Below are positions 2,932 to 39,108 of a DNA stretch of 64,000 nt, piece after piece. The position numbers were made by a program, and so were the translations under genes. The DNA comes from a virus (taxonomy: Duplodnaviria; Heunggongvirae; Uroviricota; Caudoviricetes): the IMG/VR virus record IMGVR_UViG_3300036790_000261, positions 24,725 to 88,724 of that record; one strand, 5' to 3'. A model generated the notes under the pieces. The model made no database searches and was not told the origin of the DNA. It saw only the letters and a program-made list of their open reading frames with translations. Numbering within the stretch: the stretch's first letter is position 1; each line of letters begins with the position of its first letter.

Positions 2932-3453
2932 GTGACCTGGACTACCTCAGCGATCTTCCAGCAGGCGGCGCTCAATCCACTGCTCGGTAAGGCCACCGGG
3001 TCTACGAACCCCACGACTTTCGGCAGCTGGACGGCTGACACCATCAACGTCGCGCTGTTTCTAACGGGCGCTACCCCGGACAAGACCGCCGCCGTCGGTA
3101 GCACGGGTTACAACACGGGTGTCTGGACGACAGGTAACGAGGCCCCGGGCACGGGTGGCTACACGCAGGGCGGAACCGCACTCGCCTCTAAGGCGAACAC
3201 TATTGACTCGGGTTCGTCTTCGCTGTGCTTCACCGCGGCTAACCCCTCCTGGACTAGTGCCACCATCTCTAGCGTGTTTGGCGACTTGGTCTACGACATC
3301 ACGATTGCTTCAGCGGGTAGCACTGTCGCCAAGCAGGGGTTCTGCTTCAACTACTTCGGCGGCTCGCAGGGCGTTACGGCGGGGACGTTCACGATTCAGT
3401 GGGCTACCCCGCCCAGCGGTGCCGTTACCGCGGTTTTCAACTTCGCTGTCTGA
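2932..3453 (+). CDS. hypothetical Ser/Thr/Gly-rich protein, probably virion-associated
   Basis: GTG start coupled to the upstream gene. The composition resembles structural or fibre proteins. Confidence 0.4.
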   Translation: MTWTTSAIFQQAALNPLLGKATGSTNPTTFGSWTADTINVALFLTGATPDKTAAVGSTGYNTGVWTTGNEAPGTGGYTQGGTALASKANTIDSGSSSLCFTAANPSWTSATISSVFGDLVYDITIASAGSTVAKQGFCFNYFGGSQGVTAGTFTIQWATPPSGAVTAVFNFAV

Positions 3454-3485
3454 CCCTTCCGGCTACCGCCTGAGGGGAGGCCGCC

Positions 3486-4991
3486 GTGGCCACGCTTACC
3501 CGCGTTCAGCACAACAGCATGACGACGACCAGCACCACGGCCACAAACTTCAACACAACCCTTGGTGCCGGGGACACGGTCGGCAACCTGCTGGTAGTCA
3601 CCATTGTGCTGGGCACCAACGGGCTTACGCTGACAGCCCCCTCTGGCTGGGTTCAGGCGGGTTCCTCGGAGGTCGTTTCCGGGTCTCTCGATACCCGGAT
3701 CTATTACCTGGTGGTCAGCTCGGGCAGCGTCACTAGCTTCAACTGGAGCTTCGGCGCTACCGCGCACTCATTCGGCTGGACCATCGACGAGTGGAACAGC
3801 TCTTCCGGATGGCAGGCTAGCCCGGTAGACAGCACCGCCGGGGCCGTTCACACGTCACCGTCGACTGCGGTCAACTGCGGTACCCCGTCGGCGACGACCC
3901 AGGCGTCTGAGCTGTGGCTCGGCGTGCTGTCCTGGGCGAACAGCGGGCAGACGCTGTCGGGTGTGACCGGCGGCTGGTCGACCGGCGATACCGCTACGTT
4001 TACCGGCCAGAACACGCAGACGGCGTTCTTCCAGATCGCCACGACGACCGGCACCCCGAGCCTCGCCGCCACCATCAGCGCGTCCACGGTCAACGCGGGC
4101 GTTGTCGCCACCTTCATGCCCGTCGCCGGCACCACCGTTAACGCGGGGCTCGCCACGGCCACCGGGCTTGCGCTTCAGGTTCCGTCTAACGCCCGGCTCG
4201 CCACCGCTACAGGTACTGCCCTCCAGGTCCCGGCGCCTGCTGGCCTGGCTACGGCTGCCGGCGCTGCGTTCAAGCCGCTGTTCACCGTCCCGGCCCAGCT
4301 GGCGACCGCGACCGGCACCGCGCTGCAGGTTCCGTCTAAGGCGGGGCTCGCCCACGGCACCGGCAGTGCCTTCCAGGTTCCGGCCCCGGCTGGCCTTGCG
4401 CACGGCGCGGGCAGCGCGTTCACCCTCACCCCGTGGAAGGACACGGTCTTCGCGGGGCTGGCCGCGGGCTTCGCCGAGACGTTCCAGCCGACCCCGCGCA
4501 TCCTGCGCACCCCGCTGAACCTGGGGGCGGTGCTGACCGAGGTCACGGCAGACGGCTTCCTGCGTGTAGCCACCGCTGATGCTACGTTTACCCTCGCGGA
4601 CTACGGGGCTACCCTGGCACTAGCTAACTTCGGCGCAAGCCTGACGGGATGGACGATGCAGACGGCCCCGCTGACTCTTAACGAGTTCAACGACGTCACC
4701 ATCAGTATCACCGTGACGCAGAACGGCAGCCCGCTCAACCTGACCGGCGACACGCTTAACCTGCTGCTGAAGACGGCGCCGAACACCCCGGACTCCAGCG
4801 CGCTGATCTTTTCCTCGGCTGGCGGGTCCCCCGCGATCGTCATCACCAACGCAGCTGGCGGCCTCGCTACCGCGATCATCCCGAACACCGACCTCGACGC
4901 CGAGACCTACACGTTCTACCGGCTCGACGTGGTCAGCGGCGGCCTGACCAACACCACGCTGTACGGCAGCGTCGTCTGGATCTCGCTATGA
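3486..4991 (+). CDS. structural protein with tandem AGLATATGTALQVP-type repeats (fibre or decoration-like)
   Basis: 501 aa, Ser/Thr/Ala/Gly-rich, with five or more imperfect 14-20 aa tandem repeats at about 4140-4440. It sits directly upstream of the head-tail connector gene. Confidence 0.5.
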   Translation: MATLTRVQHNSMTTTSTTATNFNTTLGAGDTVGNLLVVTIVLGTNGLTLTAPSGWVQAGSSEVVSGSLDTRIYYLVVSSGSVTSFNWSFGATAHSFGWTIDEWNSSSGWQASPVDSTAGAVHTSPSTAVNCGTPSATTQASELWLGVLSWANSGQTLSGVTGGWSTGDTATFTGQNTQTAFFQIATTTGTPSLAATISASTVNAGVVATFMPVAGTTVNAGLATATGLALQVPSNARLATATGTALQVPAPAGLATAAGAAFKPLFTVPAQLATATGTALQVPSKAGLAHGTGSAFQVPAPAGLAHGAGSAFTLTPWKDTVFAGLAAGFAETFQPTPRILRTPLNLGAVLTEVTADGFLRVATADATFTLADYGATLALANFGASLTGWTMQTAPLTLNEFNDVTISITVTQNGSPLNLTGDTLNLLLKTAPNTPDSSALIFSSAGGSPAIVITNAAGGLATAIIPNTDLDAETYTFYRLDVVSGGLTNTTLYGSVVWISL

Positions 4992-23498: not shown

Positions 23499-26400
23499 GT
23501 GACCTCGACCCCCCCGAAGCCAAGCCTGCTCAAGTCCACCGCGCTCGCCCAGGCCACGGCGGTGGCCAACCGGCTGAACTCCCTGCTGCCCACGGTGCCG
23601 AGTGCCGAGTCGCCGGTCACCGTGTACCAGGCGGGCACCATCGGGGTGGGCGGGCAGCTGAGCGCGCCTACCTCGGTGTTCCCGGTCGGCACCGGCTATT
23701 ACGGGGTGTGGACGGCGCCGGACCTGAACGACGGCAAGCCGTACACGATGCAGGTGGAGTGCTTCGGCGGCGGCGGCGGCGGCGGGGGCGGGTCCTCCAC
23801 TTCGGGCGGCGGCGGCGGGGGCGGGGCTGAGTACGCCCGGGAGACCTCGTACCCGGTCAAGCCCGGCGTCAACTACGTCTACGTGGTGGGAGTACCCGGC
23901 TCGGCGGGCACGGCGAACAACGACGACAACCAGGGCGCGACCGCGGGCGGCACCGGGGGGCTGACCGTATTTGACATCGCCGGAAGCGGCGTCGCGGGCG
24001 GCGTGCAGGCCAACGGGGGCCAGGGCGGGGATGTCGGCAATACCGGCATCGGCGGGAACGGGGGCCTGGGCAGCTTCAACACCACTGAGTTCCAAGGTGG
24101 CCCGGGTGGTACCAACCTTCCAGGCGGCGGGGGCGGTTCCGGCGGCCAGGGCGGTACCGACAATCCCATCGCACTGCTGAACGCAGGGCTGCTGAGCTCG
24201 CCGCCGGTCGCCTGGTACCTGATGAACGACGCGTCGTCCAACGGGCAGCTGAACGACAACAGCGGCGACGACAACCCGGCTAACCCGGGCAGCTACGGCG
24301 GCGGCGGCCTCGCCTACGGGCAGCCGGGAGCCCCGTCCCAGGTCCCCGCGTACGTCAGCCCCGGCAACCCGCCGAGCTCCCCCAACCCGACGACCGCCGG
24401 AACCCAGCTGCGGTTCGTCCTCGCCCAGCTGAACCAGCAGTCCGGTTACGCGCTGTGCCCCGGCTTCGCCTTCTCCGGGCACCAGGTCACCGTCTCGGGC
24501 TGGGTGACCCCGGACCCGACGGGCACCTGGGGCAACACCGCGACCGGCTCGCGGGCGGTCATCGCCACTAACTGCACGGGGTACGCGAACTCCAGCACCG
24601 CGGGCGTCGCCCTGTACTTCAAGAACTCCGGCACCAGCGCTCACCCGAGCTGGACGCTGAACTTCTACTGCGCTAGCTCAGGCTCGCACCAGACGGTCAG
24701 CGTCAGCGTCCCGCCGGTCGCGAACACCCCGGTCTACGTGGCGGCCACCTTCAGCTCCGGCGCGATGACCGTGTACGTCAACGGCACCTCGGCGGGCACG
24801 GCCACCGCGGGCTTCAGCAGCCTGCCCGGCTTCCCGACGGTGCCGTTCGGCGTGACGCTGGGCGCGGACCCGCGGATCACCACCGACTGGTTCTTCGGCT
24901 ACATGTCCAACCTGTGGTTCTCGCCCGGCGTGCTGAGCTCAGCGGGCGTGACCCAGGCGTTCAGCGGCTCCGGCGGCAGCTCAACCGAGGGCGGGGCCGG
25001 CGGCGGCGCGTCGGGCGGGCCGGCGGCACTCGGCGGCGCCGGGGCGGCAGGCAGCGGGTCGACGGGCGGGGCCGGGGGGACACCCGCTACCCAGCCTGCG
25101 ACAGACGTCGGCCTGAACACCCCGGCCTCAGCGGGCATCGCGGGCGCGGCGGGTAACGCCGGCAACCCGGGTATCACCGGCGCGGCGGGCGCGGGCGGCG
25201 GCGGGGCAGGCAGCTCGACGTCACCCCCGAATATCGTCACCGTCCAGGTGCCGTTCGTCACGGCGGCCTCTTACTGCGGGACGGACGCGACCGGCGGCAG
25301 CGCGGGCACGGTGTACAACCCGGTCATCCAGGGCGCCACCGGGCGGCTGTTCACCGGCGGCCAGTCGCAGGACGCGGCATCGGGCTCCAAGAACTCTCTG
25401 CTGGTCCTGCCGCCCAGCCTGGCGGCCAGCCTGCAGCCGGGCAGCTTCACCGTGCTCCGGGTGACCCTGACGGTAACCAGCGCTAACCCGCAGGCGGCGC
25501 AGAACGCGCTGATGCAGGTCGGCTGGGCGGCCGACACGTTCCTGCCGATCACCTACGACGCGAGTGACACCGCGGGCTCGGCGGGCGTGGTGGAGATCCC
25601 GGCCGGGGCGTTCACCGTCACCGCGGACCTGACCGAGTCTCAGCTGGGCGCGTTCCTGCAAAACGGCGGCGCTAAGGCGCTGGTTCTCGGCCCTGGCCCC
25701 AGCCCGACCTTCGCCGCTTACAACTCCGACACCGCGGCTGACTTCTACACGGCTGTCTACGGGCCGGGCGCGGTAGACAGCGCGGGCAACAGCCTGGCCC
25801 CGTTCCTTACGGTCACCTACGCGCAGTCGACGACCGTGCAGCAGGGGTCGCCCGGCGGCGCGGGCGCGGTGCTGCTGACCTTCCTCAACCAGGCGCAGAC
25901 ACTGGTCGGCAACTGGACCGCCGCGGACGGCATCAACGCCTCCGGCGGCCAGCTCACTGAGACGACGGTCGTACTCGGCTCGACCTTGCAGGACGCTGCC
26001 CGGATGAACGCGATCCGCGAGCAGGTCAGGGCTGAGGTCAAGGCGGAGAACCGCGCGATGATCAGGGAGGCGATGGCCCGGCTCGGCTCGGTTCCGGGGG
26101 CGCCGGGCACCCTGCTCGGCTACACGGCGGGCATGACCACGGTTACCCAGACGACGCCGGGTACCTACACGTTCACCGTGCCTTCTGACGTCACCTCGCT
26201 GAGCGTCGCCTGCTGGGGCGCGGGCGCGGGCGCTACCGGGGGCAGCACCAGCCAGGGGCAGGGCGGCGGCGGCGGCGGCGCGTACGCGGGCGAGCCGAAC
26301 TACAACGCCGCCCCGGGTGACGTGCTCACTTACATTGTCGGGGCGGGCGGCGCCGGGGACCACGTCGGGTCGAATAATTCGCCGGACGGCGGGTTCAGCG

Positions 26401-31384: not shown

Positions 31385-31509
31385 TCCGGGCAGCGGCACG
31401 TGCACGGCGGCAGGCACACGCAGGGAGAGTACGTATAGACAGGGCCGCTGCCGCCCGCCCCCGAGCGCACGTTCACCGGGACTTGGTCACAGCACTTGTC
31501 GTCGTCCAC
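31360..31509 (-). CDS. tiny Cys-rich metallothionein-like peptide (49 aa, 11 Cys)
   Basis: MDDDKCCDQ...SPCVCLPPCTCRCPECPCSKRK. The GTG overlaps the TAG of the SPFH gene (TAGTG). High GC3. Confidence 0.4.
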   Translation of the reverse strand: MDDDKCCDQVPVNVRSGAGGSGPVYTYSPCVCLPPCTCRCPECPCSKRK

Positions 31510-32447
31510 TACTTGCCCGCTGAGGCCGTCGGGATGACGATGCCCGACCCGCTGCCGGGCCAGCAGGAGCCGCCTGCCGGGACTGTGATCTGCCCGGCAG
31601 CCCAGGCGCTCATGCACTGCTGCACGAGGACCAGCGGGTTGTTGGCCAGGTTCTGCTCAAGCAGCTTGTTAGCTGCCGCCTGGGCAGATGCCGTCTTCTC
31701 TGCCTCGGTGGCAACGACTGTCTTGGCTGCCTGGTTGGTGGCCGCGTTGATCTGGTTCTGCACGGTGGTGTCGTAGGTCAGGGGCTTGAGGTTGAGGGTC
31801 GCGATGTTGATGTCACTGCCGACCCGTCCCTTCAGCGCTGTCTCGATCAGGCCACCTAGCTGGACTGTGCTCGGATTAGTCGGGCTGCCGGCCTTCGCGC
31901 CTGTGGCAAGCGGGGTGATCGGGTCGTACCCGTCGAGCACGGTGTTGGTGGCGGCGTTCAGCTCCGGGTCTAGCAACCCGCTCTGCAGGCCGGCTGTCGT
32001 CTTGTAGTTCGCGAAGATGTCGTCGGCCGCAGGGACGGCAGCGTTCCACCGAACCTGGACCGTTGCCTGCGCGGTCTGGCCGCCGGCAATGCGGACTGTG
32101 AACGTCTCGTCGGTCAGCTGGTAGCTGTCGTCGATGGTGGTGACGTTGTCCCAGGGCGCAGTCAGGTCGGGCCCTGGACCCTCGTGCCCGGCAAGCGCGC
32201 CGAACGACGTGACGATCCCGATGTCCCGGGTGCCGACGATGTTGAACGAGCTGACAAACACCAGCAGGCAGGTGAAGGCGGCGCAGGAGACAGCGAGGCC
32301 GAATGCCCAGGCATGCACGAGAGCGCCATCGGCCAGGCCACCGCGGGACGTCCTCTTGCCCTTCTCCGAGTGGCTGAGCCGCGCTAGAACAGCGAAGCCG
32401 ACTGTGAACGCCGCGACGATGATCGCGAAGGTGAAAATTCCTGACAC
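31509..32447 (-). CDS. SPFH/band-7 (stomatin/prohibitin-like) membrane protein
   Basis: Two N-terminal TM helices, then the SPFH core IVGTRDIGIVTSFGALAGHEGPGPD...TVRIAGGQTAQATVQVRW. Confidence 0.65.
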   Translation of the reverse strand: MSGIFTFAIIVAAFTVGFAVLARLSHSEKGKRTSRGGLADGALVHAWAFGLAVSCAAFTCLLVFVSSFNIVGTRDIGIVTSFGALAGHEGPGPDLTAPWDNVTTIDDSYQLTDETFTVRIAGGQTAQATVQVRWNAAVPAADDIFANYKTTAGLQSGLLDPELNAATNTVLDGYDPITPLATGAKAGSPTNPSTVQLGGLIETALKGRVGSDINIATLNLKPLTYDTTVQNQINAATNQAAKTVVATEAEKTASAQAAANKLLEQNLANNPLVLVQQCMSAWAAGQITVPAGGSCWPGSGSGIVIPTASAGK

Positions 32448-32561
32448 GCAGGACTCACTTCCTGTTTTCGGGGGTGTGCATGCCTGATCTTAACTTACGT
32501 CGCACAGTAGGTATTCCGTTACCTCCGCTGGAATGTCGGGGTCCCTCGCTAAGCTGGCCGC

Positions 32562-32981
32562 ATGACAAGTGTGGACAGGGCAATCGCCGACGCGCTGACT
32601 GCCGAGTACCAGGGGCGGACCCAGCTGACCGGCCAGCCTGAGGTCGTCATCGTGGACGTACCGCCGGAGAGCAAGCTAGAGCAGCTGCTGTGCCTGGAGG
32701 AGAAGCTGCGCAGCGCGCACGAGGCGGCCGACGCCAACTGGGACGAGTGGAAGAAGGCGGTCAGCGGCGAGCTCGGCAGGCTGTACCCCGGTGAGGCCGC
32801 CCCGACCAAGGCATTCGAGATCACCGGCGGCCCGATGTGGAAGGCGCTGACGGTCAGCTGGCGCAACGGCAAGGAGTACCTGCCGACCACCCTGATCAAG
32901 CAGCACATCCCGCAGGTGTGGAACGCGTTCAAGAAGACGTCCGCGGGATACTGGGACATCAGGCGAAAGGGCAAGCGGTGA
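32562..32981 (+). CDS. hypothetical protein
   Basis: ATG start, high GC3. Confidence 0.5.
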   Translation: MTSVDRAIADALTAEYQGRTQLTGQPEVVIVDVPPESKLEQLLCLEEKLRSAHEAADANWDEWKKAVSGELGRLYPGEAAPTKAFEITGGPMWKALTVSWRNGKEYLPTTLIKQHIPQVWNAFKKTSAGYWDIRRKGKR

Positions 32982-33166
32982 GCCTGTCTAACGTCTGGGC
33001 CGAGGATCTCGACGACGTGTCCCTGACCTTCCTGTACCGCATCCTGAACCGGATGATCGAGAACGGGCACAGGGGGCTTGAATCAAAAAGCGAGCAGGAC
33101 ATCGCATGGGCGGTCAAGCATGAGTACGAGGAGCGGGCTGCGCTACCAGACACGCGGGTGTTCTAG
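32978..33166 (+). CDS. hypothetical small protein (62 aa)
   Basis: The GTG overlaps the upstream TGA. It is coupled to the downstream ATG through a TAGATG overlap. Confidence 0.4.
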   Translation: MSLSNVWAEDLDDVSLTFLYRILNRMIENGHRGLESKSEQDIAWAVKHEYEERAALPDTRVF

Positions 33167-34999
33167 ATGGGCCTGGCATCGGAGTTCATGGCCTCAGCAC
33201 CGCGCTCTCCTAATGCCAGCGACGCGTGGGCAGAGCGGTACGGCGGGGAGCTGCGCGGGATCGTCACCCGGTACGCCGCGCGGATGCCCCGGTCCGTGCA
33301 GAAGCACCTCGGCCCCTCGGAGCTCGGGCACGAGTGCCTGTCTGGCGACACCGAGGTAGTGACCCGTTACGGTCTCCGTCAGATCTCGGAGCTGGCGGGC
33401 GCTGAGCCCGAACTGCTCGTGCCGATGCGGTACGAGGGAAGCGAGATCCGGAAGCACTGGGGCAGGTTCCAGCAGGTTCCTGTCACCTGCTTCGGTGAGC
33501 GTGAGCTGCTTAAAGTCACACTGCGCCGGAATCAGGCAACGAAAGTCATCCACGCGACGGCAGACCATCACTGGTTCCGTTCGTACTGGTCGGGCAAGGT
33601 CAAGAAGCAGGAACGCCTTGCCACGACTGAGCTGAGACCAGGGCACAAGCTCACGCAGCTCCGCCGGGCGATGCCACGGACGACCGCGCTGATGCCTGTC
33701 GCCGTTGCGCAGGGGTTCGTGTTCGGTGACGGTACGAAGGGCAGCAGTGACAGCAAGCATCGGGCCGCCGTCCTGAGCCTGTACCAGAACGGCAAGGACG
33801 AGGCGATGCTGCGCTTCTTCCCGGGCGAGCACAAGCAGTACAAGGACTCCGGTCACGCGCATACCTACATCCGGAACCTGCCTCGTTACTGGAAGGAGCT
33901 TCCTCCTGTCGATGAGTCTTGCTCGTTCCTGGTCAGCTGGCTGGCCGGCTACTTCGCTGCCGACGGTTCAGTGGGCGCTGATGACGGGCACTGCTCGATC
34001 TCGTCCGCCGACTGGGCGCACCTGGATTTCGTGCGCAGCGTCGCTGCTGTCTGCGGAATCGGGTACGGGCAGGTTACGACTGGGCTGCGCATCGGGATCA
34101 GCGGGAGCAAGCCCGCGGCAAAAGCAACTCCGCTGTACCGGCTCAGCCTCCGGCGCAGAGACCTGCCTGCGTGGTTCTTCCTGGTCGAGGAGCACCGTCG
34201 CCGGGCAGAAACTGCTAACGCTACCGCTGAGCGTGATCCACACTGGCTGGTCGAGTCTGTCGAACCGACGGGCCGCGTTGAGCCGGTGTACTGCGCGACG
34301 GTTGAAGGCGCTCACGCTTTCGGCCTTGCCGATGACCTGATGACAGGCAACTGCGACCGCCAGGTAGTGGCGAAGATGTCGGGCAGCCCAGTTACTAATC
34401 ACGTGGCGGACCCGTGGGCGTCGATCATGGGCACGGCCGGGCACGCGTTCGTCGCGGACGCATTCGACTGGGACAACAAGCACAACAACTACCTGCGCTG
34501 GCTGACTGAGGCACGGGTTACCCCCGACCCCGGTCCCGACCCGCACCCCGGCACCGCTGACCTGTATGACACCTACAGCCGCTGCGTGATCGACCACAAG
34601 TTCCAGGGTGACTCCACCCGGGGCAGGCTGAAGTCCAAGGGCCCGCCGCGGCACTACTACGTGCAGCTGCTGCTCTACCGGCAGGGCTACCTGAACCTGG
34701 GGCTGCCCGTCGAGCGGGTGGTGATCGTCAGCTGGCCGCGAACGAAGTCGACACTGGACGACATGTACGTGTGGTCGCACGTGCCGGTCCCGGAGGACGA
34801 CCTGCTGGTGCGCGACGTGCTGGCGGCGACGGGGTTCCGGCAGTACCTCGCTGCCCTGGTGCGCGCCGGGCAGTTCGACCTGATGGACGTTCCCGCTGTG
34901 CCGGAAGATAACGAGTGCTATTTTTGCGGTCTCTACCGGCCCCAGTCGGCCCATGACGGCAAGTACGGCTGCGCGGGGACGCTGATGAAGGAGAAGTGA
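33167..34999 (+). CDS. PD-(D/E)XK Cas4/RecB-like exonuclease interrupted by an intein
   Basis: Extein: ADLYD...VIDHKF (D...DxK), a QLLLYRQGY (QxxxY) motif, and a C-terminal CYFCGLY...C Cys cluster. Intein: CLSGDTEVV at its N-terminus, two LAGLIDADG motifs (GFVFGDGT, LAGYFAADGSV), and it ends ...LMTGN before +1 Cys. Confidence 0.6.
   Translation: MGLASEFMASAPRSPNASDAWAERYGGELRGIVTRYAARMPRSVQKHLGPSELGHECLSGDTEVVTRYGLRQISELAGAEPELLVPMRYEGSEIRKHWGRFQQVPVTCFGERELLKVTLRRNQATKVIHATADHHWFRSYWSGKVKKQERLATTELRPGHKLTQLRRAMPRTTALMPVAVAQGFVFGDGTKGSSDSKHRAAVLSLYQNGKDEAMLRFFPGEHKQYKDSGHAHTYIRNLPRYWKELPPVDESCSFLVSWLAGYFAADGSVGADDGHCSISSADWAHLDFVRSVAAVCGIGYGQVTTGLRIGISGSKPAAKATPLYRLSLRRRDLPAWFFLVEEHRRRAETANATAERDPHWLVESVEPTGRVEPVYCATVEGAHAFGLADDLMTGNCDRQVVAKMSGSPVTNHVADPWASIMGTAGHAFVADAFDWDNKHNNYLRWLTEARVTPDPGPDPHPGTADLYDTYSRCVIDHKFQGDSTRGRLKSKGPPRHYYVQLLLYRQGYLNLGLPVERVVIVSWPRTKSTLDDMYVWSHVPVPEDDLLVRDVLAATGFRQYLAALVRAGQFDLMDVPAVPEDNECYFCGLYRPQSAHDGKYGCAGTLMKEK
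33335..34351 (+). mobile_element. intein (Hint domain plus LAGLIDADG homing endonuclease), about 339 aa in frame
   Basis: It begins at Cys57 (CLSGDTEV) and ends at Asn395 (TGN) before the C-extein CDRQ. The boundaries are estimated from motifs. Confidence 0.5.
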
Positions 35000-35060
35000 T
35001 GGGGTCTGTCACCTGCCTGCGCGGGTGCCCGTACTACGTTAAGGAGAACGGCGTCTGGGT

Positions 35061-35348
35061 GTGCGGCGTGTGCAGGACCCTGAGGTAGGAGGCGCGGTGT
35101 ACCACGCGGAGCTGAACATGAACGAGGCCCGGCGCCGCGTGGTGCTGTCCACCGTCGGGGACACCGTCGCCGGGGACGTCTTCTACCTGGTTTCCGACCC
35201 GGCGGAAGTCTGGCTGCGGGTCTACCCGGCGGCGCACGAGTACCCGTTCGTGAAGTTCGGGGTCGACGTGTGGCACTCGGTCGAGACCCTCGGCGACCTG
35301 CGGGAGCGGGTCATCATCATCCACAACACCAAGGAGAGCAGCACGTGA
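35061..35348 (+). CDS. hypothetical protein
   Basis: ATG start, high GC3. Confidence 0.45.
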   Translation: MRRVQDPEVGGAVYHAELNMNEARRRVVLSTVGDTVAGDVFYLVSDPAEVWLRVYPAAHEYPFVKFGVDVWHSVETLGDLRERVIIIHNTKESST

Positions 35349-36007
35349 CTCAGCAGGGATACCGGCACCGGATCGTCATCCAGGACCGGTCAGGAAGCAT
35401 GGGCCAGATCCTCGAAGGCGCGCAGAGCGGCCTGGACGAGTTCATCGCCGGCGAGGCGAAGCTGCCGGGCAAGGTGACGGTCAGCCTGTGGGACTTCGAT
35501 ACTGAGATCCGCTGCGTGCACTCGCTGGCGGAGGCGGTCCTCGGGTACAAGATCGAGCCGCGCGGCGGAACTGCGATGTACGACGCGATCGGCGACGCGG
35601 TGACCGAAGAGGGCCGGAAGCTCGCGGCCCTGCCCGAGGACGAGCGGCCGGAAGACGTCACGATGATCATCGCGTCCGACGGGCTGGAGAACCGCTCCGT
35701 GAATTACACCGGCCAACAGGTGAGGGAAATGCTGGAGCACCAGCAGGGCTACTACAAGTGGCGGGTCATCTACATGGGCTGCAACCAGGACGCGCTGAAG
35801 GAAGGCGCGAAGATGGGCACCCAGTCGGGGCTGACGGTGAACACGGCTGGCACCAACTCCGGCGCTTCCAGGGGCTGGAAGATGTCATCGGACTACATGA
35901 GCCGGGTTCCCGTTGCCTCGGCGGCCTCCGGTCAGAGCGTCTTCTTCACCCCGAAGGAGCGGGCGCTTGGCGAGTCTGCCGAAGAGGCTGGCCCCGAGGA
36001 GGAGTAG
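35345..36007 (+). CDS. von Willebrand factor A (VWA) domain protein
   Basis: MIDAS motif IVIQDRSGSMG. The GTG overlaps the upstream TGA. Confidence 0.6.
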   Translation: MTQQGYRHRIVIQDRSGSMGQILEGAQSGLDEFIAGEAKLPGKVTVSLWDFDTEIRCVHSLAEAVLGYKIEPRGGTAMYDAIGDAVTEEGRKLAALPEDERPEDVTMIIASDGLENRSVNYTGQQVREMLEHQQGYYKWRVIYMGCNQDALKEGAKMGTQSGLTVNTAGTNSGASRGWKMSSDYMSRVPVASAASGQSVFFTPKERALGESAEEAGPEEE

Positions 36008-36314
36008 CTGCTAGGTTGGCACGCACGGAGCACCTGAACCGAACACCGACAGGCGTAACGTACGACGCTCAAAGTGACAGGTCAGGCAAAAGCTCCCAGG
36101 CGGAGGCAGTGTCCCCAGCGGGCACAGAATTCCCAGCTGACTCATTAACAGGCCTAACAGCCGGGGTCAGCCAGGGCTCAGGAAGTCCTCCAGGGCCAGG
36201 GTAGTTAGGGGCGGCGTCACAGCCAGGTACAAGGCGCCGGCGCCGCCCCGCACAAGGATCAATGCTCACGGACCATGGACAAGCTCAGTTCTCACGGACC
36301 AAGGACAAAGGATC

Positions 36315-37688
36315 TTGACTCAGCAGCCTTACCAGCAGCAGCAGGGATACCCCGGGCAGCCGAATTACGCTCCCGCCCCGGGGTACCCTCCTGCTCAGCC
36401 CGGTTACGCCGTTCAGCCGTACCAGCAGCAGCCTCCCCCTCAGCAGTACTACAGCCCGCAGCCCGCTCCGACCGGGTACCAGCCCCAGCAGCCGGGTTAC
36501 CCGCCGCAGAACGGCTACGGCCAGCCGCCCCAGCCCCCGCAGCCCGAACTGCCGCGCGGCAGCCTCAAGGACTACGTTGACCAGCCCGCGGGCGGCTTCG
36601 GCCCGTCGCTCGCGTTCCCCCAGGCGGGCACCCAGTACTGGTGCACCGTCGCGCGGAACGTCGGCGACGCGGACATCAAGCCGCAGACTGACATGATCAC
36701 CGGCGAGGTGCGGACGTTCCCGGACGGCCGGGTCAAGTGGATGATGTGCGTCCCGGTGCTGATGCAGCCGTCCCCGCAGTACCCGGAGGGCATCGCCACC
36801 TGGTACGTGAAGGGCAACGACCGCGCCGAGATGACCCGCGCGATGGAAGCGGCCGGCGTCGGGATCGACCCAGCGACCGGCACCCTGTTCCCGCCGCGCG
36901 CCGGCGACACCTTCCACGTGCACTTCACCCACGAGTCGGCCAGCAGCGGCAAGGGCCGGAACCCGACGAAGGTCAAGCGGGTCACCTACACGATGGGCAA
37001 CGGCGAGGCCCCGCCCCCGCAGGTCGTGCAGGGCCAGGTCATTCAGGCGTACCAGCAGGCGACGGGTCAGCAGATGCCCGGGGCCTTCAGCCAGCCGACG
37101 ATGCAGATGGCCCAGCCTGCCCTTGCGCAGCCGCAGAACCCGACGCAGCAGCTCCCGCCTGTTCTGCAGGGTTACAACCCCCAGCCGGGCTTCGCCTTTC
37201 AGCAGCCGCAGCTCTCGTACCCGCAGAACCCGCCGCAGCAGCCTCAGTACCAGCAGCCTCAGGTTCAGAACAGCATGCAGGGCGCTCCTGTTCCCCAGAA
37301 CGGTTACCAGCAGCCCGACTCTGCACTGGCGTACCAGCAGGCGACGGGCCAGCAGATGCAGCCTCAGCAGCCGGGCCCGTACGGTCAGCCGAACGCGGAC
37401 TGGAACCCGTACGCGCAGCAGCCTCAGCCTCCCCAGCAGCAGTTCGACCCGGCTCAGGCTCAGCAGTTCCAGCAGCAGTACCAGCAGCCGGCGTTCCCTA
37501 CGCCTGCGCCGCCTGTCCCGGGTGGTCCCCCTTCGGGTCCTGCTCAGCCCTCGGGTGCGCCGTCCCCTTCTAGTCCCCCGCCTGGCTGGCCAGCTGACGT
37601 GCCGTTCATGGAGGGGCTGACCCCGGAGATGGCCCGGGTCGCGGCGTCGGTGAAGTACCCGGGCACGCAGATGCCCCCTCAGCAGTAG
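36315..37688 (+). CDS. Pro/Gln-rich low-complexity protein with a central globular domain
   Basis: 457 aa. Long PQ-rich N- and C-terminal regions (QQP, YQQ repeats) flank a roughly 180-aa globular segment. Confidence 0.5.
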   Translation: MTQQPYQQQQGYPGQPNYAPAPGYPPAQPGYAVQPYQQQPPPQQYYSPQPAPTGYQPQQPGYPPQNGYGQPPQPPQPELPRGSLKDYVDQPAGGFGPSLAFPQAGTQYWCTVARNVGDADIKPQTDMITGEVRTFPDGRVKWMMCVPVLMQPSPQYPEGIATWYVKGNDRAEMTRAMEAAGVGIDPATGTLFPPRAGDTFHVHFTHESASSGKGRNPTKVKRVTYTMGNGEAPPPQVVQGQVIQAYQQATGQQMPGAFSQPTMQMAQPALAQPQNPTQQLPPVLQGYNPQPGFAFQQPQLSYPQNPPQQPQYQQPQVQNSMQGAPVPQNGYQQPDSALAYQQATGQQMQPQQPGPYGQPNADWNPYAQQPQPPQQQFDPAQAQQFQQQYQQPAFPTPAPPVPGGPPSGPAQPSGAPSPSSPPPGWPADVPFMEGLTPEMARVAASVKYPGTQMPPQQ

Positions 37689-37780
37689 CGAAACGGGCAG
37701 CGGAATGCTCTGGCCGTGCCGTATGTTACGTATGGCGTCGGCCGGAGCATTCTGGCGTCTACTGACTGACAAGGAAACGC

Positions 37781-39106
37781 GTGAACGACGAAGACTACGA
37801 CTGGATGGCTGGCCCTGCCACCGTCCCCCTTGAGCCTGTCCGCTCAGCCCCGCCGTGGGAGCTAGCGACGCTCACCGATACCCCCGTCGTGCCGGGCTGG
37901 CACACCGACACCATGACGATGGCCGCCCCGGGCGACCTGAAGGAGAACGACGATGATACTGCTGCCCGTCGGAGTGACGATCGCGGTCTACTCCGTGCTC
38001 GTGCTCGGGCTCGCCGCTCGCAGGTTCGCCCGGTGGACGCGCCGGATGTGGGCACCCGTACCCTGACGGTTATCGTCCCGGCGTATAACGAGGCGGCCGG
38101 GCTGCCGGAGACGCTGACCTCGGTGATGCGCCAGACCGAGGCGGCTGACCGGGTCCTGGTGGTTGACGACGGCAGCAGTGACGGCACCGCCGAGGTCGCC
38201 CTGGCCTACGGGGCTGAGGTACTGCGCCGGGACCAGTCGTCGGGCAGCAAGTCAGCAGCACTCAACTACGGGCTGCTGGAGTGCGACACCGACCTGGTGC
38301 TGAACGTGGACGGCGACACGGTTATCGCCGACAACTACGTCAAGCTGGTTAAAGCGGCATTCGCCGACCCGATGGTCGCCGTCGCCGCCGGGTCAGTCGG
38401 GGTGTGGAACCCCAAGGGCATCCTGCAGCGCGGGCGCCAGGCGGAGTACCTGCTTAGCTTCCACCTGTTCCGGCCGGTTCAGAACGCCTGGGGATCGCCC
38501 TTGGTGTGCTCGGGCGCGGCATGCGCCTACGACCGTGAGCCATTGGCTGCCGCGGGCGGGTTCCCGGATGACACCGTCGGGGAGGACATGGACTACACCT
38601 GGCGGATGATGCTCGCCGGGCGCAAGGCGGTGTACGTCGCCGGGGCTGAGTGCTACGCCATCGACCCGAAGACGACCGCGCAGCTGCGCACCCAGTTGTG
38701 GCGGTGGATGTCCGGCTACTTCCAGTGCCTGCGACTGCACTGGCGGGAGATCCTCCGGCACAAGAAGCTGCTGGGCTTGCTGGCGGTGCTGTCCGTCATG
38801 GACCTGCTCAGCCTCCCGCTGTGGCTAGCGACCCCGTTCGCGGTAACCGGCAGCGGGCGGGAGATCGCCGAGACGGCACTGCTCTCGCTGGTCGGCACCG
38901 ACCTGCTGATCTCACTGCCTGTCGTCCTAGTCGGCGCGGCCCGGCGCAAGATCAGCATCTGGTGGACGCTAGCGAGCTTCCCGTGCATCTGGGTGCTGCG
39001 GGCGTTCAACGCCTACTACTTCACCAAGGCAATGATCTGGGAGCTGGCCCTCGTCCCGTGCGAGTGGAAGACCAGCCTGTCCGTCTTCAAGAAAGGCCAC
39101 GCGTAA
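37781..39106 (+). CDS. processive family-2 glycosyltransferase (NodC/chitin/hyaluronan-synthase-like) with C-terminal TM helices
   Basis: LTVIVPAYNE, DGD, and the QLWRW (QxxRW) motif, followed by three or more hydrophobic helices. Confidence 0.7.
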   Translation: MNDEDYDWMAGPATVPLEPVRSAPPWELATLTDTPVVPGWHTDTMTMAAPGDLKENDDDTAARRSDDRGLLRARARARRSQVRPVDAPDVGTRTLTVIVPAYNEAAGLPETLTSVMRQTEAADRVLVVDDGSSDGTAEVALAYGAEVLRRDQSSGSKSAALNYGLLECDTDLVLNVDGDTVIADNYVKLVKAAFADPMVAVAAGSVGVWNPKGILQRGRQAEYLLSFHLFRPVQNAWGSPLVCSGAACAYDREPLAAAGGFPDDTVGEDMDYTWRMMLAGRKAVYVAGAECYAIDPKTTAQLRTQLWRWMSGYFQCLRLHWREILRHKKLLGLLAVLSVMDLLSLPLWLATPFAVTGSGREIAETALLSLVGTDLLISLPVVLVGAARRKISIWWTLASFPCIWVLRAFNAYYFTKAMIWELALVPCEWKTSLSVFKKGHA

Positions 39107-39108
39107 AC

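Follow-up and report, generated by a model that had tools for sequence, protein, structure and literature searches.

What is the 339-residue segment that interrupts an exonuclease gene of a tailed phage, and can it still leave its host protein and move between genomes? The question is raised by an open reading frame (ORF) of 610 codons plus a stop, on the + strand of a 64,000-nucleotide stretch (hereafter, the window) that covers positions 24,725 to 88,724 of the IMG/VR virus record IMGVR_UViG_3300036790_000261 (Caudoviricetes). An earlier reading of the bare sequence (the sequence-only reading) had seen here an intein with a LAGLIDADG homing endonuclease inside a Cas4/RecB-like PD-(D/E)XK nuclease. 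With high confidence, we interpret the segment as a genuine mobile intein, probably still active, that carries a LAGLIDADG endonuclease and resides in the gene for a Cas4-like PD-(D/E)XK exonuclease of an actinobacterial tailed phage. The ORF consists of an N-extein, an intein and a C-extein:

33167..34999, + strand: complete precursor gene (ORF list; match to PHROG 1674, 'exonuclease', E=4e-47, in two stretches)
33167..33334, + strand: N-extein, residues 1–56, ending ...LGPSELGHE; G49-P50-S51-E52 and G54 do not vary among 49 intein-free homologues
33335..34351, + strand: intein, 339 aa or 1017 bp, residues 57–395; HINT splicing domain with an inserted LAGLIDADG endonuclease
34352..34996, + strand: C-extein, residues 396–610; nuclease core and C-terminal Cys motif, with tblastn alignments starting at residue 396

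The reading frame is intact throughout, and its start agrees with the gene calls on two related contigs (L003 and L004). The PHROG 1674 match flanks the insertion on both sides, the larger stretch beginning at residue 394. The intein starts with CLSGDTEVV and ends with DDLMTGN, so that Gly rather than His is the penultimate residue, and it is followed by Cys396 (position +1). These are exactly the ORF and the boundaries that the sequence-only reading had given. Joining residues 1–56 to 396–610 yields a predicted spliced extein of 271 aa, which carries the motifs GTADLYD, DHK and QLLLY and has cysteines at positions 57, 134, 245, 248 and 263. The locus is therefore best annotated as one 610-aa precursor whose mature product would be a 271-aa nuclease; automated calls either truncate it or label it 'hypothetical'. 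An instance of truncation is the JGI gene call P0001 (524 aa), which lies on an identical metagenomic contig and is 100% identical to residues 87–610 of the window protein. It starts at a Met inside the intein and thereby loses the N-extein and block A, an annotation error due to the intein.

An exact and optional insertion

If the segment is an intein, alleles should exist from which it is precisely missing, and the sequence-only reading had proposed looking for one. A search of 5.8 billion proteins with the predicted splice product as query gave 730 homologues, the best 120 of which (194 to 303 aa) were listed. The closest of them, P0121 (274 aa), matches the query along its entire length (100% coverage) with 97% identity. 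In a multiple alignment, the intein-free proteins read ...PSELGHE/CDRQVV... (here and below a slash marks an insertion point), with a clean gap of 339 columns; in all, the segment is precisely missing from 120 intein-free proteins.

The same result was obtained at the nucleotide level. P0121 is encoded on a 7.1-kb contig of a metagenomic phage (L003), which is collinear with window positions 32499–40245 at 87–93% nucleotide identity; over the nuclease gene itself the identity is 92–93%. The alignment stops between 33334 and 33335 and restarts at 34352, so that exactly 1017 bp are missing. The empty site of this contig reads GGGCACGAG/TGCGACCGCCAGGTG or, as also given, …CTGGGGCACGAG/TGCGACCGCCAGGTGGTAGCG…. 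Base composition differs as well, the GC content at third codon positions being 0.77 in the intein and 0.88 in the extein.

Among homologues the 339 residues thus behave as an optional, sporadically distributed insertion and not as a conserved domain. A conserved insertion domain of non-intein nature was considered and rejected, because exact intein-free alleles exist. A chance pattern can likewise be dismissed in view of the PHROG match, the 97% identical intein-free allele, the exact 1017-bp gap and the Foldseek matches to inteins described below.

Splicing blocks, fold and endonuclease

For the analysis of the intein itself we extracted 116 copies, of which a 56-member subset was used to assess invariance and to build the alignment for structure prediction. 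The conserved blocks map to the window as follows (residue numbers are those of the intein):

33335..33373, + strand: block A (CLSGDTEVVTRYG) with the nucleophile Cys1, invariant in the 56 members; aligns to DnaE CLSYETEILT
33539..33580, + strand: block B (TKVIHATADHHWFR) with Thr B:7, His B:10 and Trp B:12; H78 and W80 are invariant, T75 is conserved in at least 90%
33650..34231, + strand: LAGLIDADG homing-endonuclease domain, residues 106–299, limits approximate; Foldseek matches to I-DmoI, PI-SceI and PI-PfuI
33698..33736, + strand: LAGLIDADG motif 1 (VAVAQGFVFGDGT; GFVFGDG) with a catalytic Asp; G127, G131 and G133 are invariant, D132 at least 90%
33926..33973, + strand: LAGLIDADG motif 2 (FLVSWLAGYFAADGSV; GYFAADG) with a catalytic Asp; W-x-x-G-Y-F-A and G211 are invariant, D210 at least 90%; PF14528 hit below threshold
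34280..34327, + strand: block F (EPVYCATVEGAHAFGL) with Cys F:4 in place of the usual Asp; C320 is invariant
34331..34354, + strand: block G (DDLMTGN) and the Cys+1 codon, with Thr G:5, Gly G:6 and Asn G:7; N339 is invariant, T337 and G338 at least 90%

The residues expected of an intein are in place: the block A nucleophile, the TxxH motif (T75-x-x-H78), the terminal N339 and Cys+1. Both LAGLIDADG blocks that had been claimed were found, and their catalytic aspartates (D188 and D266 of the precursor) are invariant in orthologues. A profile search of the PDB with the intein family retrieved class-1 DnaE inteins (7qil, E=9e-4), whose blocks A, B, F and G line up with those of the family. In the 7qil alignment, ATaeHrWf falls on ATKDHKFM, which sets the register of block B, and vEeVyCAvv...LmTgN falls on SEDVYDIGV...FIASN. 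The splice-junction residues, whose absence on alignment would have spoken against an intein, are thus aligned with those of reference DnaE inteins. C320 is aligned with the Asp of DnaE VYDIGV and with the Cys of TACIGV in the class-3 intein of phage Zeeculate. A single-sequence phmmer search of the PDB with the whole precursor returned nothing.

Structure prediction points in the same direction. The AF2 model of the intein, based on the 56-member alignment, has a mean predicted local distance difference test score (pLDDT) of 94.8 and a predicted template modelling score of 0.92, and in it we recognize both a HINT fold and a LAGLIDADG fold. At the top of the Foldseek list against the PDB are the inteins TliVMA (E=1.5e-13), PI-PfuI (4.8e-12) and PI-SceI (about 1e-11 to 1e-9), followed by the free-standing endonuclease I-DmoI (E about 1.5e-5). 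We looked for a second intein copy and for further LAGLIDADG motifs in the window and found none.

One expected residue, the penultimate His, is missing, as the sequence-only reading had noticed; Gly338 stands there, as it does in the family at large. Gly, Lys or Ser has been recorded as the penultimate residue of phage inteins, and a mycobacteriophage intein with a penultimate Gly (the Bethlehem RDF intein) splices, its Gly to His change having led to accumulation of the precursor (PMC5050341). The absence of this His is therefore unremarkable.

The host nuclease and its four cysteines

What kind of protein does the intein interrupt? The diagnostic motifs of the nuclease all lie in the C-extein (residue numbers refer to the spliced protein):

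34550..34600, + strand: nuclease motifs II (GTADLYD) and III (DHK); no change in Asp or Lys among 49 homologues without and 22 with an intein
34664..34678, + strand: QxxxY motif (QLLLY); Q and Y are invariant
34916..34972, + strand: C-terminal Cys motif, CYFC-x14-C; C245, C248 and C263 are invariant

The residues D126, D137, K139, Q161 and Y165 do not vary among the 49 intein-free homologues, and the window has all of them; the same holds for the cysteines C57, C245, C248 and C263, whereas C134 is not conserved. The claim of a spliced extein of about 271 aa with D..DxK, QxxxY and a four-Cys cluster is thereby borne out in every part. In Cas4 and AddB, the ligands of the [4Fe-4S] cluster are one N-terminal Cys and a C-terminal CxxC...C. 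The spliced protein has the pattern C-x187-C-x2-C-x14-C, and by analogy with Cas4/AddB-type nucleases its four invariant cysteines are putative [4Fe-4S] ligands. The first of the four is the Cys+1 residue itself: Cys396 (34352–34354) corresponds to extein C57, which is native in intein-free alleles.

The AF2 model of the intein-free allele P0121 (alignment of 49 sequences, pLDDT 86.3) is closest in Foldseek to Cas4 SSO0001 (4ic1, E=2e-5), in line with the Cas4/RecB-like identity proposed earlier. Further matches include RecE, lambda-exonuclease-like proteins, MGME1, Exo5, AddAB and the Cas4 of a Cas4-Cas1-Cas2 complex. The template modelling (TM) scores are modest (0.42–0.57) and indicate similarity at the family level, not orthology. 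In tblastn searches of phage genomes, the C-extein aligns from exactly residue 396, at about 33–34% identity, with genes of 350 actinophage records that are annotated as 'Cas4 family exonuclease' or 'RecB-like exonuclease'. The examined neighbours are phage genes and show no CRISPR context, though cas genes and arrays were not searched for systematically. The fitting label should be 'Cas4-like', not Cas4.

Insertion sites and hosts of the intein family

Is this intein confined to one site in one gene? A search with the full-length precursor identified 31 proteins that have the intein at the same site (site a) and many more that match in the intein part only. The 31 site-a inteins form one clade in a neighbour-joining tree, which suggests a single switch to this site. 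Another 45 copies occupy a second position in the same nuclease family, site b, inside the CxxC motif (...ECYF/CPFYRPQ). In the window site b is empty; it lies between 34924 and 34925 (DNECYF/CGLYRPQ) and is flanked by …GAGTGCTATTTT/TGCGGTCTCTACCGG…. Four proteins of about 950 aa (P0002, P0003, P0004 and P0006) hold inteins at both sites, and the two are 47–52% identical to each other.

The family extends beyond nucleases. After C-x-x we found 38 further copies in other proteins. Their hosts include proteins with a PAPS-reductase domain, several that match no Pfam family, and P0077, a homologue of family-A DNA polymerases (...DDMCLD/CETSG). Altogether, 83 of the 116 copies follow C-x-x and thus sit inside a CxxC motif. 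Two are located elsewhere, one host being a group-1 glycosyltransferase (P0075) and the other a protein of unknown family (P0105). Related inteins in unrelated proteins are about 45% identical; examples are P0091 of Kitasatospora aureofaciens and P0118 of Actinomadura sp.

Two fragmentary nuclease homologues, P0069 and P0090, contain a different intein, located after the DxK motif (…DWKG/IFVSTPVATPDGW…) and without an N-terminal nucleophile. A tblastn search assigns it to the class-3 inteins already published from RecB/Cas4 exonucleases, terminases and DnaB helicases of actinophages, with matches that include Zeeculate, Dexes and Frankenweenie (38–40% identity, E down to 7e-52). The window intein, searched with tblastn against 50,697 phage records, gave a single, weak match, 26% identical over the whole intein: the gene orf7 for ribonucleoside-triphosphate reductase of Thermobifida phage P318 (L002, MK240575.1, locus 3001–3918). 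This match implies an unannotated intein in that 985-aa reductase gene.

At least three independent intein sites are now known in the nuclease family, which already counted as an intein hot spot, namely site a, the CxxC motif and the published motif III, and some natural alleles hold two inteins at once. The repeated landing on putative metal-ligand cysteines illustrates neatly how inteins target those codons of a gene that are under the strongest constraint. It also hints at conditional maturation of an iron-sulfur (Fe-S) nuclease, without demonstrating it.

Selection, mobility and the case against an active intein

Does the element still function? As reference we took P0005 on L004, the closest allele that contains an intein; at the amino acid level the window is 79% identical to it in the extein and 76% in the intein. 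The ratio of nonsynonymous to synonymous substitution rates (dN/dS) is 0.18 and 0.12 in the N-terminal and C-terminal splicing parts, respectively, 0.20 in the endonuclease and 0.25–0.26 in the exteins, values that are rough because dS is high (0.6–1.5). The splicing and endonuclease parts are both under purifying selection. The distribution of the intein adds to this picture: the 14 nearest extein relatives of the window are all intein-free, and for most site-a alleles identity is higher between the inteins than between the exteins (73% versus 52% for P0007, 69% versus 51% for P0008). Such discordance between intein and extein similarity, together with the patchy distribution, is what homing predicts and indicates that homing has taken place.

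These data bear on two less favourable interpretations. According to the first, the insertion is decayed and dead for splicing, or is a domesticated HINT/LAGLIDADG domain, the nuclease being either inactivated or working with the insertion retained. The lack of the penultimate His, the sub-threshold scores of curated profiles (see below) and the JGI gene call that begins inside the intein could all be taken in this sense. However, the frame is intact, every catalytic position is conserved, dN/dS amounts to 0.12–0.20 in both intein domains, the insertion is exactly missing in close relatives, and an intein with a penultimate Gly has been shown to splice (PMC5050341). Moreover, the insertion stands directly before an invariant Cys, the putative first ligand, and its retention would probably disrupt the site. 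We regard this interpretation as very improbable. A decayed pseudogene, in particular, was rejected on account of the intact frame, the conserved catalytic residues and the low dN/dS.

According to the second interpretation, splicing is active but the endonuclease is dead, homing has ended and the intein is inherited vertically. Decay after fixation is indeed common among homing endonucleases (general knowledge; bioRxiv 10.1101/2025.01.02.630785). Here, however, both catalytic aspartates and most LAGLIDADG core positions are invariant, the endonuclease domain has a dN/dS of 0.20, and the intein is distributed sporadically, with inteins more similar than exteins. In addition, empty sites are abundant in the population and would maintain selection for homing. 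A dead endonuclease therefore seems rather unlikely to us, and we continue to favour an intein that is active in both respects.

Several observations nevertheless weigh against an active mobile intein in a Cas4-like nuclease, the roughness of the dN/dS values being one. Curated hidden Markov models stay below their cut-offs on the intein: LAGLIDADG_3 (PF14528) reaches 19.5–20.4 bits with a cut-off of 22.5, TIGR01445 17.9 with 24.5, and TIGR01443 15.4 with 15.6. Annotation by sequence profiles alone would consequently miss the intein. The spliced extein of the window matches no family in Pfam or NCBIfam, PF12705 (PDDEXK_1) included, a family that is reached by 12 of the 49 intein-free homologues (best E=8.6e-7). 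It also has no sequence-level match in the PDB, where the profile of the extein family returned noise only; since these searches were empty, structure prediction and Foldseek were needed to place the extein. The last Cys spacing, CxxC-x14-C, is unlike the CxxC-x5-C of Cas4 and AddB. Finally, splicing, endonuclease activity and its cleavage specificity, Fe-S binding and the order of the nucleophiles are all properties that we infer.

If the favoured interpretation is correct, the life cycle of the element may be pictured as follows. A precursor of about 68 kDa would be translated, from which the HINT domain would excise the 339-aa intein and ligate Glu56 to Cys396, restoring ...LGHE-CDRQVV... 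as found in intein-free alleles. Because Cys396 is the first putative cluster ligand, the Fe-S cluster, and hence a functional nuclease, would form only after splicing. The freed intein carries a two-motif LAGLIDADG endonuclease, which in co-infected cells would cleave intein-free alleles near GGGCACGAG/TGCGACCGCCAGGTG, and repair from the occupied allele would copy the intein into the cut one.

Splicing chemistry

Which residue would start the splicing reaction? Eight positions are conserved in at least 90% of the family: Cys1, Thr B:7, His B:10, Trp B:12, Cys F:4, Thr G:5, Gly G:6 and Asn G:7. Five residues (C1, H78, W80, C320 and N339) are invariant in the 56-member subset. Trp B:12, Cys F:4 and Thr G:5 make up the 'WCT' triplet, the defining mark of class 3 inteins (PMC2807308, PMC7664689, PMC7891396), and the family has it, W80 and C320 being invariant and T337 conserved in at least 90%. 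As originally defined, class 3 inteins have no N-terminal nucleophile, and their +1 residue is nearly always Ser or Thr (PMC2807308). The present family departs from both features: Cys1 is invariant, and +1 is Cys in all listed copies but P0105 (Ser+1), the Ser/Thr preference being usual and not absolute. The combination of Cys1 with WCT has a precedent, since three WCT inteins in InBase in 2009 began with Ser or Cys (PMC2807308). Judging by sequence, the first attack could come from either Cys1 or Cys F:4; the chemistry is unusual, though with precedent.

Two routes have to be weighed, and since they concern chemistry only, even the class 3 route is compatible with a mobile intein. In a standard class 1 intein Cys1 would start the reaction, and the WCT residues would assist structurally or catalytically only. 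Cys1, Thr B:7, His B:10, the terminal Asn and Cys+1 are all present and conserved, as this route requires, and the nearest relatives with solved structures, class-1 DnaE inteins, likewise have no penultimate His (ASN end). On the other hand, F:4 is mostly Asp in class 1, and an invariant Cys at this position together with Trp B:12 and Thr G:5 co-varies strongly with class-3 chemistry (PMC2807308). We give the class 1 route about an even chance.

In the class 3 route C320 (Cys F:4) would attack the N-terminal junction to form a branched thioester at block F, the N-extein would then be passed to Cys+1, and Cys1 would be dispensable. WCT inteins that start with Ser or Cys reportedly still take this route, as Tori and Perler are said to have found in 2011. 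The invariance, or near invariance, of WCT across the 116 copies favours such a route, and the register of the triplet is confirmed against both a class-1 reference (7qil) and the class-3 RecB intein of Zeeculate. For the latter (gp67) we used a local hhalign alignment, which is collinear and superposes W, C and both LAGLIDADG motifs but is not significant (E=0.4); it served solely for motif registers, the global alignment having been misaligned. The absence of the penultimate His also fits, as that His is of minor importance in the class-3 MP-Be DnaB intein (PMC2807308). However, Cys1 is invariant even among copies that are only about 30–40% identical, which speaks for a need for it; nearly all copies here have Cys+1, as opposed to Ser/Thr in class 3 (PMC2807308); and the best sequence relatives with solved structures are class-1 inteins. 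Furthermore, WCT grafted onto a class-1 intein did not alone yield class-3 splicing (PMC7664689). The class 3 route is thus a plausible candidate, though one that we would not bet on.

A more speculative and, in our view, unlikely idea would accommodate both nucleophiles. The family, phage-borne, closest in sequence to class-1 DnaE inteins, and with Cys1, WCT and Cys+1 but no penultimate His, could be a survivor of a state ancestral to class 3, in which either Cys1 or Cys F:4 may attack first. With three catalytic cysteines at a predicted Fe-S ligand, in a family that returns again and again to codons of such cysteines, splicing might then be coupled to redox conditions or Fe-S assembly. Whatever the route, more than 100 natural copies with both Cys1 and WCT bear directly on the evolution of class 3 splicing.

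Comparison with known systems

How new is the element? Forty inteins have been described in Cas4/RecB-like exonucleases of cluster C1 mycobacteriophages, all of class 3 and all inserted at one and the same point of a conserved nuclease motif (Kelley et al. 2016, PMC5050341), and a 2025 PhagesDB survey counted 138 exonuclease inteins at motif III, EFK/T (bioRxiv 10.1101/2025.01.02.630785). The window intein shares with these class-3 inteins of the MP-Catera gp206 type a phage Cas4/RecB-like exonuclease as host, a HINT domain with a two-motif LAGLIDADG endonuclease, the WCT triplet and insertion into an essential motif. It differs in position, theirs being motif III (EFK/T, or DYK/T in Zeeculate gp67) and ours GHE/CDRQ. 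It also differs in its nucleophiles, since theirs have none at the N-terminus and Thr at +1, whereas the window intein has Cys1 and Cys+1 and represents a distinct lineage. The Zeeculate extein has no detectable BLASTP similarity to the window extein.

Other known systems are more distant. Class-1 DnaE inteins (Npu/Ssp; 7qil, 4lx3, 4qfq) have in common with the window intein Cys1, TxxH, the terminal Asn, Cys+1 and the lack of a penultimate His (ASN there, TGN here), but they are mini or split inteins without an endonuclease and have Asp F:4, Phe B:12 and Ala G:5 in place of Cys, Trp and Thr. PI-SceI, PI-PfuI and TliVMA share the two-domain fold (Foldseek E 1.5e-13 to 1e-9, TM up to 0.68) but are only 11–15% identical and are archaeal or yeast inteins of the VMA ATPase or ribonucleotide reductase; they are canonical class 1 inteins with a penultimate His. 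As for the host protein, Cas4 SSO0001 (4ic1) and AddB/Exo5 have the same D, DxK, QxxxY and N-terminal Cys plus CxxC...C, whereas Cas4 SSO0001 is only about 16% identical, and the window nuclease is encoded by a phage gene and has a last spacing of x14.

Inteins in actinophage Cas4-like exonucleases are thus already known. The window intein differs from them in its insertion site at the first putative Cys ligand, of which we found no earlier description, in its lineage, and in having Cys1 and Cys+1. Insertion at Cys ligands is mentioned in neither PMC5050341 nor bioRxiv 10.1101/2025.01.02.630785; a text search of the latter found no 'iron' and a single 'cysteine'. The published inteins lower the novelty of the present one, which is a real but fairly ordinary element. 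The sequence-only reading did not include these published inteins, the place of Cys+1 among the four putative cluster cysteines, the WCT triplet alongside Cys1 or the second insertion site.

Genomic context and neighbouring genes

The window carries genes typical of a tailed actinophage, including a tape measure gene (13117–17997), a head-tail adaptor, a helicase (43424–45262) and a DNA methyltransferase. A megablast search with a 4.5-kb region gave no match among 50,697 phage records, so that the phage has no close sequenced relative among them. No functional partner was seen among the neighbouring genes, and neither a recombinase nor a single-stranded DNA-binding protein was identified adjoining the nuclease.

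Just upstream of the nuclease module lies a gene of 312 aa on the − strand (31509–32447), which has an N-terminal hydrophobic stretch and matches PHROG 200 'lipoprotein' (1.8e-28). Between it and the nuclease, a 62-aa ORF without a family match (32978–33166, +) abuts the nuclease start codon, its TAG being followed directly by ATG. In the otherwise collinear contig L003, 183 bp of this ORF are missing, and L004 has a 61-aa gene at the same place. Downstream, a 457-aa ORF (36315–37688, +) is very rich in Gln, Pro and Tyr at both ends and has no family match; it is probably real, being conserved in L003 as a gene of 424 aa. It is followed by a run of carbohydrate-active genes on the + strand (37781–41472), composed of a family-2 glycosyltransferase-like gene (37781–39106), a polysaccharide deacetylase (39627–40577; PF01522, 2.7e-25) and a GH16-like gene (40594–41472).

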